Under the pieces are notes generated by a model, which saw only the letters and a program-made list of their open reading frames with translations, had not been told where the DNA came from and did not search any database. Positions 675 to 13,416 of a stretch of 44,545 bases of DNA are shown here, one piece after another. Source of the DNA: Planctomycetota bacterium (GTDB lineage Bacteria > Planctomycetota > UBA1135 > UBA2386); assembly GCA_051274975.1 (NCBI GenBank), contig JBNMND010000003.1:1-44545 (forward strand), in the 5' to 3' direction. The position numbers and the translations under genes were made by a program. Every line of letters begins with the position of its first letter. Within the stretch, counting starts at the first letter, position 1.

Positions 675-1820
675 TCACCGCGTCATCTGCTGCCAGATCG
701 GACCTTGTCCCGAGTCACCGCTCTCGATGCGCTCGATCGCCAGCCGGATCTGCATGCGGACTTCGAACTCTGGATCCTCCGCCACGGCTCGCAGTGGGGC
801 CAGGCTGCTCTCGTCGCCTGTCTCGAAGAGGAACCGGGCCGCACGCCAGCGAACGAGCCTGTTCGGGTCCTGCAGCGCCTTGGCCATCGGCCCGATGGCC
901 CGGGGATCCGCCAAGTCGGAAAGCGCGTCGCCCGCGGTGCGGCGGACCGCCGCCGTCTCGTCGTCGAGCGCGTCACACAGCGCCGGCACGGCGGCGGGAT
1001 CGCCGGTGAGCCCGAGGTAGACCACCGCCAACCTGCGAATCGAGGACTTGGGATCCTGCAGGGCCTCGGTCAACACTGGAATGTCAGCTGCTGAATTGGG
1101 CGGCCGCGGTGCGAGCCTCGCGAGAGCGGCGTAGCGCACCCGCCAATCCGGATCGTCCGAGAGTTCCCTGACCTGTAAAATCGGTCCATGCTCTTCGTCG
1201 GGTTTCGACTCGCGGGGGGCCGCCCCATCGGCGAGGGCTTGGCTCACGAGTTCCTCGAGCCGCTCGTCATCGAAAGCGCTGTCGATCTCCTCGACGACCT
1301 CCTTCGCGATCTCCGTCAACTCGCCGTAGCGCGCCCCCTGATCGACCCATCTGCGTTCAGCGAGCATGTTCGGCGACGCGGTTGCTGCCCGGTTGACCGC
1401 CCTGGCGAATCGCTCGGGGAGCGCCGCTCGGTGCATCTGCATACCCGCAGAGACCTTCACGAGCATCGGAACGCCGCGGAAGTCCTGCAGCTCGACGCGC
1501 ACCTCGCCGAAGGAGGCGTCGAGTTCCTGTGCGGCCACGGCGACGTCTTCCGGGAGTTCTCCGCCCTCATCGAACGCTTGCCGGGCGCGTGCGAGGATAG
1601 GCTGCCAGTCCGCGCGGGGTTCGCGCTGGATGGCGATGAAGTCTTGCATGTGGAACAGGCTCTTCACCCCCGACACGTTCAGGAGCCTCGCGATGTAGTC
1701 GGGGCAGTCGCCCTTTTCCTCGGCCGTGTAAGTCCGGCTCATGCCCTTGGGCAGACTCTCCCCGAGGTTCAGCTTCATGCTGTTCGGGTTGGGCGTCGGT
1801 TCGATGGAAATCAGCTTCAT
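675..1820 (-). CDS. Conserved virulence factor C (CvfC/YpgR)-like protein: Nfu/NifU N-terminal domain + virulence-factor domain + HEAT repeats
   Basis: Starts MKLISIEPTPNPNSMKL (Nfu_N-like). C-terminal HEAT/PBS repeats (VRRTAGDALSD, VRWRAARFLFE, DPEFEVRMQ) end in GPIWQQMT. GAGGAG SD lies 9 nt upstream. Confidence 0.85.
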   Translation of the reverse strand: MKLISIEPTPNPNSMKLNLGESLPKGMSRTYTAEEKGDCPDYIARLLNVSGVKSLFHMQDFIAIQREPRADWQPILARARQAFDEGGELPEDVAVAAQELDASFGEVRVELQDFRGVPMLVKVSAGMQMHRAALPERFARAVNRAATASPNMLAERRWVDQGARYGELTEIAKEVVEEIDSAFDDERLEELVSQALADGAAPRESKPDEEHGPILQVRELSDDPDWRVRYAALARLAPRPPNSAADIPVLTEALQDPKSSIRRLAVVYLGLTGDPAAVPALCDALDDETAAVRRTAGDALSDLADPRAIGPMAKALQDPNRLVRWRAARFLFETGDESSLAPLRAVAEDPEFEVRMQIRLAIERIESGDSGQGPIWQQMTR

Positions 1821-2086
1821 TACGGAGAACTCCTCTCGACACTCTATTGGATCTGAAGGTAGACGACGAGGCTCGCGACGGCGTTACAGCCGCGGGAAGA
1901 CCCGGTTGCCTGCTGGTGCCGTGTTGCGGATTCGTTTGAGCCCTCTGGCGTTGCGGCGCGAGCTGATGTCCTCAGTGCTCGACGTCGCACCGATGTTTCA
2001 GGACTCCATGGTCGATGTTCTTCGGCGGCATGTCGCTGGCGCGACCGGCGCCGCGAGCAACGAGTGGGGCGTCCTGATGCTGTGAT

Positions 2087-3061
2087 CTAAGATGGCCGCA
2101 GTGCGACCGTATCTAAACGCGCCTGCGACTCGGTCCAGTGGTGTTTGTATTCCATCAGCGGGCCCATGTCGTAGCGGGCGACGCCTTCTTCGCAGAGCCA
2201 TCGCAGCTGCTCGAGCTGCATCACATTGCCAAGTGACGCTGCGCGCCAGTCCTCGGCGAAGCTGAATTGCTGGCCGCGGTAGACGTTGTCTTGGGCGTTG
2301 GGCCCACACAATCCGCCGAAGATGAAGCCGATGTCGGTGCCTCCGTGGCATGCGAACATCACGCGGCCGCAGCCACTGACGGCCATGCGGCGCAGCATCA
2401 CGGAGTAGAACTGCAGCGAGGGTGGTTTGCTCATGCCGCAGTCGCCGAGGCCCTTCCAGCTGCGGTCTTCGACGGCGATGATGCGGGCGTAGACGGCGTC
2501 CGATTCGGCTTTTGTGGTGGGTTGGTGGCGTTCGAAGGTTACGCCGCGATCATGGGCGCGGCGTGCTGCACTGCGGGCGCCGCGACGGGTCTTCGCCGAG
2601 CGCCGCGACAGGTAGCCGTCGAGCCCGCCCTCGAGCGATGCGCGGCAGGTTGTTTCCGTGGCGATGTGCAGCAAGTCGTAGCTAGCCCCAAAAGCTTCGT
2701 TGAGCACGGGCACGACTGGGCCTTCGATATCCATGCCGCTGAGCAGCACGGTTGCCTTCGCGTGCGATTTAAGCAGTTGCGCCAACATCGGCACAGCGTC
2801 GGGGCCAAGCAGCGGGCAGCCGAACAGCCAGCTCGATTCGACCGGCTCGAGCAATTGACCAGAAGGCGTCTTCTCATGCAGCGCGAACGAGATCACGCTG
2901 TCTTCGTAGGCAGCAATACACAGGTCGCGATTCGGAGCGAACGCCTCGTGAAACGACAGTTGCCACTCGGTTCGGCAGCAGAACGGATCGCCGTGCGCCA
3001 TGATGTCGACGGCGCGGTTCCATACGGAGTCTGGGTGGTCGTAATCTAGCAGGCTCGCCAT
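2087..3061 (-). CDS. GNAT-family N-acetyltransferase (CelD/BcsL-like)
   Basis: GGLDGYLSRRSAKTRR, VEDRSWKG, SLGNVMQLEQLRWLCEEGVARYDMG...YKHHW are typical of this GNAT subgroup. ATG 3061 chosen over the TTG start in the track. Confidence 0.75.
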   Translation of the reverse strand: MASLLDYDHPDSVWNRAVDIMAHGDPFCCRTEWQLSFHEAFAPNRDLCIAAYEDSVISFALHEKTPSGQLLEPVESSWLFGCPLLGPDAVPMLAQLLKSHAKATVLLSGMDIEGPVVPVLNEAFGASYDLLHIATETTCRASLEGGLDGYLSRRSAKTRRGARSAARRAHDRGVTFERHQPTTKAESDAVYARIIAVEDRSWKGLGDCGMSKPPSLQFYSVMLRRMAVSGCGRVMFACHGGTDIGFIFGGLCGPNAQDNVYRGQQFSFAEDWRAASLGNVMQLEQLRWLCEEGVARYDMGPLMEYKHHWTESQARLDTVALRPS

Positions 3062-9095: not shown

Positions 9096-9261
9096 TTGGT
9101 AGCGGTTTCTTTGGCGGCAGTTTGCGCAGAGCGGCAAGCGTCGCGCGGAGATACGGCACAAACGGTGCGAATGGAGAACTGGTCGGGCGGTTGTGAGTGT
9201 GGCGTTTTCGATATGCTCGCCCGCGACACCTAACCAGAACCCCTCACTGGAGATTGCCACC

Positions 9262-10614
9262 GTGCTGCGTATCGCCCTTCTGCCCCTACTCGTCACGCCA
9301 CTGTTCGCCCAGTGGTCGCAAGTCGTCACGGCGACGACCCCCGGCCAAGTTCGCGACGGCGCGATGGCGTTTCACAACAGCAGCGGCAACACCGTTTTGT
9401 TTGGTGGCTGGCCTGCTCTGAGCACCACATGGTTGTACGACGGCGCCGACTGGACTAGTGCGTCGCCGGCGACGGTGCCGGCTGCACGCCGTGAGAACGC
9501 GATGGCTTCCGACTTTGCGCGCGGCGTGGTCGTGATGTTTGGTGGTGGCGGCGGGCTGTCTGACACCTGGGAGTGGAACGGTGCGGACTGGACTAACATG
9601 ACTCCGGCAGTGAGCCCGCCTGGTCGCCAAGGTCACGTGATGGCGTACGACGCGACGCGTGGCGTCACCGTTCTCTTTGGTGGCACGACGAACCCAAATG
9701 CACCGGCCGAGTTGTCCGATACGTGGGAATGGAACGGCACGACGTGGACGCAAGTCACGACGGCCAACGCACCGTTCGAGACCTCTTACTCGTGCATGTG
9801 CTTCGACATCAATCGCGGCGTCTGCGTGTTGACCGGCGGCACAAGCTTGTTTGGCGCGCCCGATCAAAGGACGTGGGAATATGACGGTGTCAACTGGGTG
9901 GACCGCACCACATCCGTCGGTCCAGCGCCGAGTGCGATCCCGGGTCTCGGCGTGCAGAACGCCAAGATCGTCTACGACAGCGTGCGCGGTGTTTCGATGC
10001 TGTATGGCGGTCGCACGCCGAACGGTACGTTCTCAGCGGACACGTTCGAATACGACGGCACTGCGTGGGCAATCGTCGCCAGTGGCACGCCGAGTTCGCG
10101 CACGCGCAACATGATGGCGTTCGACATGACACGCGGCGTGCCGATGATCTACGGCGGCTTGACCGGCAACTTCCAAACGTGGTTTACCGAGACGTGGGAA
10201 TACAGCGCGGGGGTTTCGGCTTCCTACGCGATGTTCGGTGCGGGTTGTGCAGGCGCCAGTGGCGTGCCGAGCAATACCGCTTCGGCGCTGCCTGTTTTGG
10301 GCACGACGATGGTGATCGACATCGGCAACATGCCGGCGCCTGAGTTGATGGTCATGGTGCTTGGTCTTGGCACCATCAGTCCTTCGGTGGACCTTGGCTT
10401 CCTCGGTGCAGCTGGTTGCCCGGCACACGTCAATCCGGATGTGCTGCAGCTGATCTCCGGTGCTGCTGGTTCGGCGTCGTTCAGTCTGGCTGTCCCGGCA
10501 ACGCCGGCGCTGTCTGGTTTCGAACTGCACACGCAGGCGATTGTGGTTGATGCCGCGGCCAACGCGTTTGGCGGTGTTGTGTCCGACGCCGCTACGGCGA
10601 CGGTCGGCCTGTAA
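9262..10614 (+). CDS. Secreted Kelch-like beta-propeller protein with a distinct C-terminal domain
   Basis: Repeats of the form MAYDxxRGVxVLFGG...DTWEWNG, about 6 copies. Signal peptide from GTG 9262 with GGAG upstream. Confidence 0.8.
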   Translation: MLRIALLPLLVTPLFAQWSQVVTATTPGQVRDGAMAFHNSSGNTVLFGGWPALSTTWLYDGADWTSASPATVPAARRENAMASDFARGVVVMFGGGGGLSDTWEWNGADWTNMTPAVSPPGRQGHVMAYDATRGVTVLFGGTTNPNAPAELSDTWEWNGTTWTQVTTANAPFETSYSCMCFDINRGVCVLTGGTSLFGAPDQRTWEYDGVNWVDRTTSVGPAPSAIPGLGVQNAKIVYDSVRGVSMLYGGRTPNGTFSADTFEYDGTAWAIVASGTPSSRTRNMMAFDMTRGVPMIYGGLTGNFQTWFTETWEYSAGVSASYAMFGAGCAGASGVPSNTASALPVLGTTMVIDIGNMPAPELMVMVLGLGTISPSVDLGFLGAAGCPAHVNPDVLQLISGAAGSASFSLAVPATPALSGFELHTQAIVVDAAANAFGGVVSDAATATVGL

Positions 10615-10734: not shown

Positions 10735-11925
10735 ATGAATCGCCTTCTCCTCGGAGCAGCCAGCTGCGCGCTACTGATCTCTTGTGACGTTTTCGCCCAA
10801 GGCGGTGGTGGCCAACCCCGCCGCGGCATCAATGTCGCGCGCATGGTGGAGCGCTACGATGCCAACAAGGATGGCAAGCTGACCAAGGAAGAGGTTGGCG
10901 AAGGCCGCGTGTGGGATCGCCTTTTGCGAGCCGACAAAGACGAAGACGGCACCCTCACCAAGAAAGAGATGGAGTCGATGAGCGGCGGCGGCGGCGGTCG
11001 TGGCCGCGGCGGTGAGGCGACGTGGAAGTTCTTGCAGGAGAAATACGACGCTGACAAGAACGCCAGCATCAGCGCTGCGGAGTACACGCGCGACAAGGCT
11101 ACGTTCACGCGTTTGGACAAGGACAAGGACGGCGCGCTGACCGCCAAGGATTGGGCCGGTGGCGGCGAGCGCCAGCGTGGCAATCGTCAGCGCGGCAATC
11201 GTCAGCGCGGCGAAGGCGGCGGTAGGACTCGCAGCGGGGCTCCCGAAGCCGGAGATAAGGCTCCCGACTTCACGTTGACGTTCGTCAAGGACGGTAAGAA
11301 GTCGGTCAAGCTGTCGGACTACAAGGGCGACAAGCCGGTCGCTTTGGTGTTTGGGAGCTGTACTTGACAACCCTTTGTTAGCTCAGCTGGTCAGCTGAGC
11401 GATCTCTACTCGGACTTCTCCAAGGATGTTCAGTTCTTCCTGGTCTACTGCCGCGAAGCGCACCCGATCGATGGCAACCGCCCCGGTCGCGCGGCGGTCG
11501 AGGATCCGATCACAGACGCCGAACGTCGCGGCGTCGCTGCAAAGTTTGTTGCCGACATGAACCTGGCGATACCCGCGTTGTTGGATGGTGTCGACGATGC
11601 TGTCGGTCGCGCCTATATGTCGCATCCCGATCGCCTCTATTTGATCGGCAAGGATGGTCTGATCGCGTACGCCGGCGATCGAGGACCGGTCGGTTTCAAA
11701 CCACGCGAGTTGCGTGAAGCGATCGAAGACGAGTTGATGCTCAATACGTCGAAGGCGCTGCCGGCTGCGACGTCCCTGCGCGACGTTCTCGATGCCAATC
11801 GCGATGGCGTGTTGTCGATCGAAGAGTTGGCCAATGCCACGGAGGTTCTGCGCACTCTCGACAAGAATGGCGACGGCAAGTTGACCGGTGACGAGTTGCC
11901 TTTGGCCAAGACGCGTAAGCTGTAA
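10735..11925 (+). CDS. Secreted EF-hand / iodothyronine deiodinase-like selenoprotein (Sec at TGA 11365-11367, residue 211 of 396)
   Basis: Track ORFs 10723..11367 and 11557..11925 share one frame with a single TGA. Readthrough gives APDFTL...KPVALVFGSCT-U-QPF...FFLVYCREAHPIDG...AYMSHPDRLYLIGKDGLIAYAGDRGPVGF, the deiodinase signature set. Six EF-hand-like loops; signal peptide. Confidence 0.92.
11170..11211 (+). repeat. 15-nt tandem repeat encoding RQRGN-RQRGN-RQRG linker
   Basis: cgccagcgtggcaat cgtcagcgcggcaat cgtcagcgcggc. Confidence 0.8.
11365..11403 (+). promoter_or_regulatory. Putative bacterial SECIS element
   Basis: Perfect stem GCTCAGCT-GGTC-AGCTGAGC (11381-11400) begins 13 nt after the TGA. 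Its G-starting apical loop is 21 nt from the TGA. Confidence 0.8.
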
Positions 11926-12045
11926 CGCGTAACGTCGGGATGGTCTTTTTGCCGAGGAAGTGAGCTTGCCAGTGTGCGTGCAGATTGTCTCCGCGTTGTA
12001 TCAGTAGCGCGTTCGAACGGAGACGCCCGCGCTAAGCGAGCAGCA

Positions 12046-13416
12046 ATGAGACGACCAATGAGCAATGGCGTGACAGCTACGGTTGCGTTCACCCTGACCC
12101 TTCTGGCGACGGCGTGCGGAGGCGTTGGTGGCAGCGCTAGCGTCCCCGATTCGGTGCCCGATCCGGTGCCCGGCGCGGCCCAGCTGGCCAACGTGCTGCT
12201 GGCGGAAGGCGTTGGCTCACAGCCAGCGGTGCCGACCGTTAGCGACGAGTTGTTCGCGCTCGGTTCTGCGCTGTTCTTCGACAAGATCTTGTCGGGCAAC
12301 AACGACGTGTCGTGTGCGACATGTCACTGGCCTGAGTTGTCTGGCGCGGATGAGCGCACGCTGCCACGCGGTGTTGGCGGCATCAACTTAGGCGTGGATC
12401 GCACCACTGGTAACATCATCCCGCGCAACAGCCCGACGGTGCTCAACGCACACTTGCTCGAGAAGGTGTTCCACGACGGCCGTATCGAGATCGACGGTGC
12501 TGACTTGGATACGCCTGCTGGTGCGGCGTTCACCGCGGGCATGCGCGCGGTGTTTGATCCGCAGTGGGAGTTGCTCGCGGCGCAAGCGCTGTTCCCGGTG
12601 ACCTCGCGCGAAGAGATGCGCGGGCAGAACGGCCAGAACGCAATCGCGAACCTTGGTGATGCGGACTTCGCTGGCATCTGGGATGCTTTGCGTGATCGTT
12701 TGGTCGCCTTCACCGGTTACCAAACGCTATTCTTGGCCGCGTATCCTGGCCTTTCAGGAATCGGTGACATCGAGTTCGAACACGCGGCTAACGCCCTCGC
12801 GGCCTTCGAAGTGCGCGCGTTTGGATTGACAGACAGTGCTTTCGAGCGGTTTGTTGATGGCGACGCCCAGGCGTTGACCGAGCAGCAGGTCAGCGGCGCG
12901 TTGGCGTTCTACGCACCGAACAGTTGCGCCCGGTGCCACTCCGGCTCAGGATTCACGGACAACGACTTCCACAACATCGGGTTGCCGCAGTTCGGGCCTG
13001 GTAAGGGCGATGGTGGCAGCGGTCTCGATGACTTCGGTCGCGAGCAGGTGACGGGTCAGGGCAACGATCGCTACGACTTCCGCACGGCACCGTTGTTGAA
13101 CATCGAGTTGACGGCACCGTATGGCCGTCTCGGCCAATACGACGACTTGCGCAGCATCGTGTTGCACTACACCGACACCACGCAGTTCCTCCAGAACTAC
13201 AGCATCCTCAACAACGTTACCGACCCGGATCTGCTCAGCACGCTGTTGGCGAACACCAACGATATCAGCACTCGAATTTCGAACCGCGTGCGCAACGCGC
13301 GCAACTTCGACGTCGATGAGGTTGTCGCGTTCCTGCAATCGTTGACGGCCGATTCCGCCCGAGACCTTAGTGCGCTGATCCCGGCCACGGTGCCGAGCGG
13401 TTTGTCTGTTCGATGA
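12046..13416 (+). CDS. Di-heme cytochrome c peroxidase / MauG-superfamily lipoprotein
   Basis: Heme motifs CATCH and CARCH; LFFDKILSGNNDVSC, PRNSPTVLN, FTDNDFHNIG, FRTAPLLNIELTAPY. Lipobox-like LLATAC. Start could be 12046 or 12058. Confidence 0.88.
   Translation: MRRPMSNGVTATVAFTLTLLATACGGVGGSASVPDSVPDPVPGAAQLANVLLAEGVGSQPAVPTVSDELFALGSALFFDKILSGNNDVSCATCHWPELSGADERTLPRGVGGINLGVDRTTGNIIPRNSPTVLNAHLLEKVFHDGRIEIDGADLDTPAGAAFTAGMRAVFDPQWELLAAQALFPVTSREEMRGQNGQNAIANLGDADFAGIWDALRDRLVAFTGYQTLFLAAYPGLSGIGDIEFEHAANALAAFEVRAFGLTDSAFERFVDGDAQALTEQQVSGALAFYAPNSCARCHSGSGFTDNDFHNIGLPQFGPGKGDGGSGLDDFGREQVTGQGNDRYDFRTAPLLNIELTAPYGRLGQYDDLRSIVLHYTDTTQFLQNYSILNNVTDPDLLSTLLANTNDISTRISNRVRNARNFDVDEVVAFLQSLTADSARDLSALIPATVPSGLSVR

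Follow-up and report, generated by a model that had tools for sequence, protein, structure and literature searches.

A probable exported deiodinase-like selenoprotein with EF-hands on both sides of its catalytic domain in a member of the Planctomycetota

Bacterial deiodinase-like proteins, in selenocysteine (Sec)- and Cys-containing forms and with a bacterial selenocysteine insertion sequence (SECIS), were reported in 2005, and a redox role was suggested for them (Zhang, Fomenko and Gladyshev, PMC1088965; this and the other papers given here by PMC number are cited for their excerpted text). Fusion of deiodinase-like selenoproteins to EF-hands was reported in 2021, together with extra conserved Cys residues of unclear function (PMC9402790, Figure 2B legend and text), and two reviews list the family with a UxxC motif (PMC9312934, PMC13188914). 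Calredoxin, which joins four EF-hands to a thioredoxin domain, is described as Ca2+-dependent (PMC4911631, PMC10602609). Here we describe a gene at positions 10735..11925 of a 44,545-nucleotide stretch of DNA (the window; positions 1 to 44,545 of contig JBNMND010000003.1, assembly GCA_051274975.1) from a Planctomycetota bacterium; the gene and all of its features lie on the + strand. It is a further member of the described selenoprotein family, which is common in the phylum. Taking the parts jointly, we consider it probable that the gene encodes a genuine Sec-decoded, exported EF-hand deiodinase-like selenoprotein that works through a Sec-based two-electron redox cycle, an estimate that excludes any single substrate.

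With the published bacterial family the protein has in common a PF00837 domain, a Sec encoded by UGA, a SECIS hairpin, an EF-hand fusion (Pfam13499) and extra conserved Cys residues (PMC1088965, PMC9402790). It departs from the UxxC motif of the reviews in reading C-T-U-Q-P-F, with no Cys at +3, and its EF-hands flank the catalytic domain on both sides, a comparison that rests on the text and legend of the published fusion. An initial annotation of this DNA read the gene essentially correctly, and the parts of that reading that were open to analysis held up; the kind of gene is not new, as family and fusion were already in print. That annotation counted the EF-hand architecture as unusual and proposed a survey of homologs; the survey was run, and the architecture is common in the family.

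An open reading frame (ORF) runs from ATG 10735 to TGA 11365-11367. The 63 in-frame codons that follow (11368-11556) contain no stop and lead in the same frame into a downstream ORF that extends from ATG 11557 to TAA 11923-11925. When the TGA is read as Sec (U), the two ORFs join into a complete selenoprotein gene of 396 codons plus TAA, encoding 396 residues with the in-frame TGA as Sec211, as the initial annotation described. Orthologs align over nearly the whole length at 59-87% identity, with one TGA in each. Standard ORF calling yields a split into products of 210 and 122 residues, and public collections hold truncated, EF-hand-only products of 247-249 residues (P0002, P0003); both speak for an alternative in which TGA 11365 is a true stop and the locus is a pseudogene or split gene, with a 210-residue EF-hand protein followed by a 122-residue ORF that is decayed or separate. 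A stop here, however, would cut the thioredoxin fold right before its catalytic residue. The 63 codons make up a segment without its own start codon, and they are conserved, synonymous changes exceeding non-synonymous ones: across the 64 codons from the TGA onward, differing codons number 16/9, 14/7 and 19/12 (synonymous/non-synonymous) against three orthologs. Hundreds of homologs share a TGA at this position, a covarying hairpin follows it and the genome has complete Sec machinery, all of which further argue against termination, an explanation that we regard as very improbable.

Conservation of the codon was followed at three scales. Among 41 related genomes, all 23 strong matches (E <= 3e-27) contain exactly one TGA, and in the extracted homologs it sits within the motif G-S-x-[T/S]-U-x-P-F. 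The best 80 loci from named genomes were then tallied by motif; 76 of them gave 77 instances (the other four missed the regular expression), with U in 76 and C in one (L113). Finally, in an even sample of the phylum comprising 301 genomes, PF00837 has 128 matches, 121 with one TGA and seven without a stop, distributed over 96 genomes, or about a third of the sample.

Two ways in which the readthrough could fail had been raised beforehand, a TGC or TGT at 11365 in the reads and a genome devoid of Sec machinery, and neither is borne out. Contigs of three runs (X1, X2 and X4) cover the codon, read TGA and show zero differences across the gene; these are contigs rather than raw reads, and X1 and X2 may both be the source of the DNA, a flag that X4 does not carry. 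Contigs of X5 cover a small share of the stretch, and the Sec codon falls outside that coverage. The genome assembly (5.75 Mb, 507 contigs, 89.8% complete) encodes selA (460.7 bits), selB (353.1 bits) and selD (250 bits), all above their cutoffs, and a tRNA-Sec at 74 bits, likewise above its cutoff, that ARAGORN calls as tRNA-SeC with anticodon tca. An assembly or sequencing error for a Cys codon, or a UGA read as some other amino acid, therefore meets a TGA that recurs in independently assembled genomes and a dedicated tRNA (anticodon TCA) with selA, selB and selD beside it; no evidence in favor of either was found, the Cys of L113 being the single such residue among the 77 motif instances, and we give these explanations next to no weight.

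The decoding genes have features of their own. The selD gene (C134:26-613, L001) carries an in-frame TGA, which makes SelD itself a selenoprotein. It adjoins selA (C134:719-2053, L005), and the contig end cuts it, with the remainder on C340. Relatives of SelA are mostly labelled Planctomycetota, at 64-83% identity, and the closest named one (P0123, 91% identity) is labelled Hyphomicrobiaceae, likely a mis-binned contig; taken by themselves, these labels make Planctomycetota the probable phylum of the genome. DUF1559 (PF07596), tried as a phylum marker, was absent from the genome and equally from every control genome, and is therefore uninformative.

Starting 13 nucleotides past the UGA, and within the coding sequence, is a SECIS-like hairpin (11381..11400) with an 8-base-pair stem (11381-11388 with 11393-11400) and the loop GGUC (11389-11392). 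Across 16 homologs aligned without gaps, pairing holds in 85.9% of cells and five of the eight pairs have changed on both sides. The observed covariation score was never reached in 500 shuffles, and sliding the 3' partner by 1-3 columns lowers pairing to 19.5-44.5%; the shuffle control overstates significance, as the sequences are related, and the slid control is the fairer one. The closing pair alternates between U-A and C-G, by a synonymous change at the third position of an Ala codon (GCU/GCC) on one side and a Gln/Arg replacement (CAG/CGG) on the other, a switch for which protein constraint alone is a poor explanation. The hairpin agrees with the bacterial pattern described in PMC1088965, a stem-loop just past the UGA whose small apical loop includes a G. 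A scan of the whole window gave no Rfam match at gathering thresholds, so the SECIS call rests on the fold and the covariation analysis. From the conserved UGA, this hairpin and the presence of SelA, SelB, SelD and tRNA-Sec, we infer that UGA 11365 is read as Sec with the help of the hairpin and the genome's own machinery.

The protein itself is identified by its match to PF00837 (T4_deiodinase; E 7.2e-26, 91.4 bits against a cutoff of 27), which spans the TGA, covering residues 171-331 and profile positions 74-234 of 237; a genome-level search gives 86.5 bits. A profile built from 16 homologs matches mouse Dio3 (4tr3, E 5e-32) and mouse Dio2 (9h48, E 1.6e-29). In the profile alignment to 4tr3, U211 falls on the position of the catalytic Sec170 of Dio3 (Cys in the crystallized mutant), as the initial annotation foresaw, and the deiodinase motifs quoted there were all located: FGSCTUQPF at 206-214 (U211), YCREAH at 238-243, HPDRLYLIG at 297-305 and DRGPVGF at 315-321. 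Together with a structural model, PF00837, NF038285 and 4tr3 place the deiodinase-like thioredoxin-fold catalytic domain at residues 169-331 (11239..11727).

NF038285, the "deiodinase family protein" (a hypothetical equivalog of 347 positions), spans an N-terminal EF-hand region plus the deiodinase-like domain, and two homologs (L037 and L023) align to its positions 30-340 and 38-341. The protein scores 210.5 bits over residues 169-330, under the cutoff of 250 bits, and therefore belongs to a sister clade of the equivalog rather than to the equivalog itself. All 13 other relatives scored in the same comparison also fall below the cutoff (50-224 bits), and among 11 further relatives only two sequences, both with GSFTUGPF, pass it (L080 at 391 and L104 at 407 bits).

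Active-site residues were transferred from Dio3 by profile alignment, with an offset of +113 from chain index to Dio3 numbering that reproduces His202, Trp207, Asp211, His219, Cys239, Phe258 and Arg275. On this basis S208 corresponds to Ser167, T210 to Thr169, Y238 to Tyr197, E241 to Glu200, H243 to His202 and R316 to Arg275, and C209 falls on Cys168, the proximal Cys. The proton relay proposed for Dio3 consists of Ser167, Thr169, Tyr197, Glu200, His202 and His219 (PMC11592359), and five of these six residues are present here (S208, T210, Y238, E241 and H243). In the 16-sequence alignment (A1), the Sec motif G-S-x-T-U-x-P-F is kept in all 16 rows, S208, Y238, E241, A242 and H243 are invariant and T210 is nearly so. 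Cys209 (11359..11361) lies two residues before Sec, as C-T-U, and is also the counterpart of DIO1 Cys124, for which a selenenyl-sulfide has been shown directly; in DIO3 the proximal Cys is needed for recycling (PMC9141512). The Y238-C239-R-E241-A-H243 motif (11446..11463) marks the start of the Dio-type loop insertion, which the model shows as a coil of ~22 residues (239-260) between strand 233-238 and helix 261-275.

The AlphaFold2 model, built on the 16-sequence alignment, has a mean predicted local distance difference test (pLDDT) score of 78.4 and a predicted template modeling (pTM) score of 0.51, with block pLDDT values of 83-96 across the catalytic core. Foldseek ranks the two deiodinases first, 4tr3 (E 7.6e-13, template modeling (TM) score 0.78 to the target, root-mean-square deviation 2.4) and 9h48 (TM 0.77). 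The likeness to Dio1-3 extends over the FGSCTU-x-PF active site, which matches Dio3 save for the residue after Sec, the proximal Cys, the Tyr, Glu and His of Y-x-x-E-A-H, the loop insertion that follows, Arg316 and the fold (TM ~0.78). The protein differs from the animal enzymes in having a signal peptide and EF-hands and no N-terminal membrane anchor, and in placing its SECIS within the coding sequence rather than in the 3' untranslated region (PMC1088965). Thyroid hormones are not expected as substrates.

Ahead of the catalytic domain, the N-terminus, MNRLLLGAASCALLISCDVFA followed by QG, reads as a signal peptide by sequence inspection, in keeping with the export signal noted in the initial annotation. 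It covers residues 1-21 (10735..10797), with a probable signal peptidase I site between VFA and QG. A lipobox-like LISC (Cys17) offers an alternative to this site and is found in the closest orthologs only. A hydrophobic N-terminus is present in every extracted homolog, and a leader ending in A-Q is general.

Six canonical 12-residue EF-hand loops (D-x-[DNS]-x-[DNSG]-...-[ED]), four before and two after the catalytic domain as first annotated, were located, with flanking helices in the model, and are predicted to bind Ca2+. The N-terminal four form two pairs (10858-10893 and 10933-10968, then 11047-11082 and 11116-11151; residues 42-53, 67-78, 105-116 and 128-139), and the C-terminal pair (11791..11895) has its loops at 11791-11826 and 11860-11895 (residues 353-364 and 376-387). 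EF-hand_1 (E 7.5e-21 over five stretches), EF-hand_5, EF-hand_6 and EF-hand_7 all score above Pfam cutoffs; in the N-terminal module the EF-hand_7 pair reaches E 3e-14, and a profile search finds calmodulin matches around E 1e-12. A disordered Gly/Arg-rich linker with a repeated RQRGN unit (11155..11232) leads from the EF-hand module to the catalytic domain; residues 143-166 of it have pLDDT <50, and the model shows a second disordered linker at residues 85-91. The GGC-rich segment 10952-11035, which codes for GGGGGRGRGG, has a summed contig depth of up to 5535 in four runs. This depth comes from short pieces of other organisms and is uninformative on the gene.

Calredoxin (Chlamydomonas, PDB 5e37) resembles the protein in fusing an EF-hand module to a thioredoxin-fold redox domain. 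It differs in carrying a thioredoxin domain, in residing in the chloroplast and in not being a selenoprotein, whereas the protein here has a deiodinase-like Sec domain and is a bacterial protein predicted to be exported. In the profile search, the sequence match to 5e37 is confined to the EF region.

A layout of signal peptide, two to six EF-hand loops and deiodinase-like Sec domain recurs across relatives, and about 50 of the 77 instances in named genomes have N-terminal EF-hand loops. Named genomes with the family are mostly labelled Planctomycetota (Mariniblastus, Pirellulaceae, Gemmataceae), and it is also found in Latescibacterota, Chloroflexota/Anaerolineae and Poribacteria. Within this distribution, two traits set the present clade apart. 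The first is the pairing of a Cys at -2 with the Cys of Y-C-R-E-A-H (Cys209/Cys239): the closest group in A1 has both in each of its six rows, four Mariniblastus/Pirellulaceae loci have them too, and a tally of 76 instances includes five sequences with a Cys at -2, of which four carry both. The residue at -2 across the family is otherwise Y (35), F (30), W (5) or M (1), with C in five. The extra Cys in YCREAH flagged by the initial annotation is the second residue of this pair, a trait of the clade. The second trait is the C-terminal EF-hand pair, found in the window's genome (G000), in G011 and G014 and in the same four Mariniblastus/Pirellulaceae loci; the A1 row of L030 ends before the second C-terminal EF-hand (full locus 1501-2757, minus strand). 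Judged from the sequences compared, both traits are specific to the clade. The Gln after Sec, likewise remarked on at the outset, is confined to the window's genome: P, R or G takes its place in the remaining 15 rows of A1, and 76 motif instances elsewhere have P (59), G (16) or E (1).

The identity of the substrate is a separate question, and it is here that the strongest competing view lies. The same Sec gene could encode an exported peroxiredoxin-like peroxidase or a ResA/DsbE-type thiol-disulfide reductase, in which Sec211 replaces the peroxidatic or nucleophilic Cys and the enzyme protects the envelope against peroxides or hypohalous acids. This view bears only on the substrate and falls within the identity favored above. 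AhpC-TSA (39.8 bits, cutoff 26) and Redoxin (34.7 bits) both match above their Pfam cutoffs, overlapping the deiodinase match and weaker than it, as the 91.4 bits of PF00837 make plain. Straight after the two deiodinases, the fold search ranks the exported thiol-disulfide reductases ResA, DsbE and Etrx and then the peroxiredoxins AhpE and Bcp, whereas the Dio-specific loop insertion with its invariant E-A-H motif speaks for the deiodinase side. A di-haem cytochrome c peroxidase gene (CCP_MauG, E 1.3e-34; 11974-13416, +) lies directly downstream, yet in a search of 99 related loci this adjacency is common only to the nearest relative, G011 (L027/L046, one contig). A paralog in the same genome joins a Sec redoxin domain to DsbD_N, and the authors of the 2005 report favored a redox function over deiodination (PMC1088965).

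Two further comparisons draw on general features of peroxiredoxins. Their active-site motif is P-x-x-x-T/S-x-x-C. In the protein here Ser208 stands at -3 from Sec, and the nearest Pro, P201, lies ten residues before Sec and not seven. Cys forms are also common in peroxiredoxin-like selenoprotein families, against which the retention of Sec in 121 of 128 copies stands out.

Several observations weigh against a deiodinase-type cycle, against a calcium role or against the generality of either. The proton relay is incomplete, as its sixth residue, Dio3 His219, is replaced by Pro258, which is invariant in the bacterial alignment. Dio3 Trp207 corresponds to Asn248 and Phe258 to Pro298, neither conserved, and the distal Cys239 of Dio3 falls on a position with a non-Cys consensus. 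Most family members have no proximal Cys, and so a step through Cys209 is not family-wide. The 27 of 77 instances without N-terminal EF-hand loops indicate that calcium is dispensable for the core chemistry, and domain placement in the model is unreliable (pTM 0.51), so no contact between EF-hands and active site is claimed. No conserved neighbor that might hint at a substrate or reductant appeared among the 99 related loci searched or the 94 whose flanks were clustered, and the literature searched yielded no measured activity for any bacterial deiodinase-like family member.

Set side by side, the retention of Dio-specific features and the near absence of Cys forms speak for dehalogenation, and the absence of Dio3 His219, Trp207 and Phe258, fold neighbors of the peroxiredoxin and ResA kinds and the lack of an informative conserved neighbor speak for a peroxidase or thiol reductase. 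We lean toward a reductive cycle of the deiodinase type, in which Cys209 would be the resolving residue. As to what is reduced, reductive deiodination or debromination of halogenated phenolic compounds is a tentative first choice that falls just short of an even chance; reduction of peroxide, hypohalite or disulfide, as the peroxidase or reductase view would have it, is a serious possibility at about a third; and some other substrate is unlikely.

For the deiodinase-type cycle, the following sequence of events can be envisaged. The signal peptide would carry the protein across the cytoplasmic membrane. There, the Sec211 selenolate would attack a two-electron electrophile, as in the animal deiodinase, with the hydrogen-bond network of Ser208, Thr210, Tyr238, Glu241 and His243 donating a proton. 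The proximal Cys209 would capture the oxidized selenium (Se-X or Se-OH) as a selenenyl-sulfide, which would then be handed on, possibly via the clade-specific Cys239, to an external thiol reductant. In the model topology Cys239 is placed at the end of the neighboring strand, and because of this position and its co-occurrence with Cys209 it may relay the disulfide. The genome encodes a DsbD-type membrane protein (DsbD_TM), which could provide the reductant; with this protein and the Sec paralog carrying DsbD_N both encoded, an extracytoplasmic supply of reductant is plausible. Only outside the cell would the EF-hands be loaded with Ca2+, and by analogy with calredoxin they would probably stabilize the enzyme there or switch it on.

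Two paralogs in the same genome deserve mention. One, at C43:4865-5467 (L023:958-2067), is a second EF-hand and deiodinase-like selenoprotein of 370 residues, with GSYTU...YCREAH, N-terminal EF-hands and a lipobox-like LAAC, and is 40% identical over the catalytic domain. The other, at C46:14231-14650 (L024:652-2022, minus), is a third Sec thioredoxin-fold protein, of 457 residues and with GCLTUVPF, that combines Redoxin/AhpC-TSA with DsbD_N (PF11412) and C-terminal EF-hand-like loops. It has matches at 27-34% identity, with one TGA each, in G001, G002, G010, G011, G013 and others, and a similar fusion is named in PMC9402790, the "Prx-like protein fused with DsbC domain". Elsewhere in the family, a named Planctomycetota genome has two deiodinase-like Sec genes in one locus (L089, GSFTUPPY and GSFTUGPF), an arrangement suggestive of tandem duplication in some lineages. 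In L040 (G025:C7) the frame continues for ~600 residues into radical-SAM methylthiotransferase-like sequence, probably a frameshift or missing stop in the assembly and not a real fusion.

The surroundings of the gene vary between genomes. Seven window neighbors were compared by tblastn with the 99 related loci. Upstream lies a Kelch-repeat protein, predicted to be exported (9193-10614, +), whose adjacency is kept in three same-genus genomes (G011, G002 and G013) and not beyond; in G002 the cytochrome c peroxidase is replaced downstream by a CarboxypepD_reg-domain protein. When 2158 flanking ORFs from 94 loci were clustered, no neighbor other than antisense shadow ORFs was found in more than eight loci. 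The recurring flanking families were peptidase M20 (eight loci), DUF1559 (six loci) and GFO/IDH oxidoreductase (five loci), and, with no widely shared neighbor among the clusters, the idea of an operon partner was dropped. A promoter scan gave no promoter-like site, and a terminator scan gave nothing convincing past the stop codon.

Ordinary gene callers turn this gene into two, an "EF-hand protein" and a short orphan ORF. The correct reading adds a selenoprotein to this genome and points to the use of Sec in proteins that are probably exported. With Sec kept in 121 of 128 copies, most of the proton relay conserved, and export and calcium binding both predicted, the family is a reasonable first biochemical target, and as the present clade has the proximal Cys, like DIO1 and DIO3, it offers a convenient representative for the bacterial deiodinase-like enzymes. 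A broader and rather doubtful proposal is that the family comprises oxygen-tolerant, corrinoid-free extracytoplasmic reductive dehalogenases that are Ca2+-switched after export and ancestral to the thyroid-hormone deiodinases. If this were true, Sec would strip iodine or bromine outside the cell from halogenated phenolic compounds (algal or sponge bromophenols and halotyrosines, for example), the enzyme would stay inactive until its EF-hands took up Ca2+ after export, and the family would represent the ancestral chemistry behind the thyroid-hormone deiodinases of animals.

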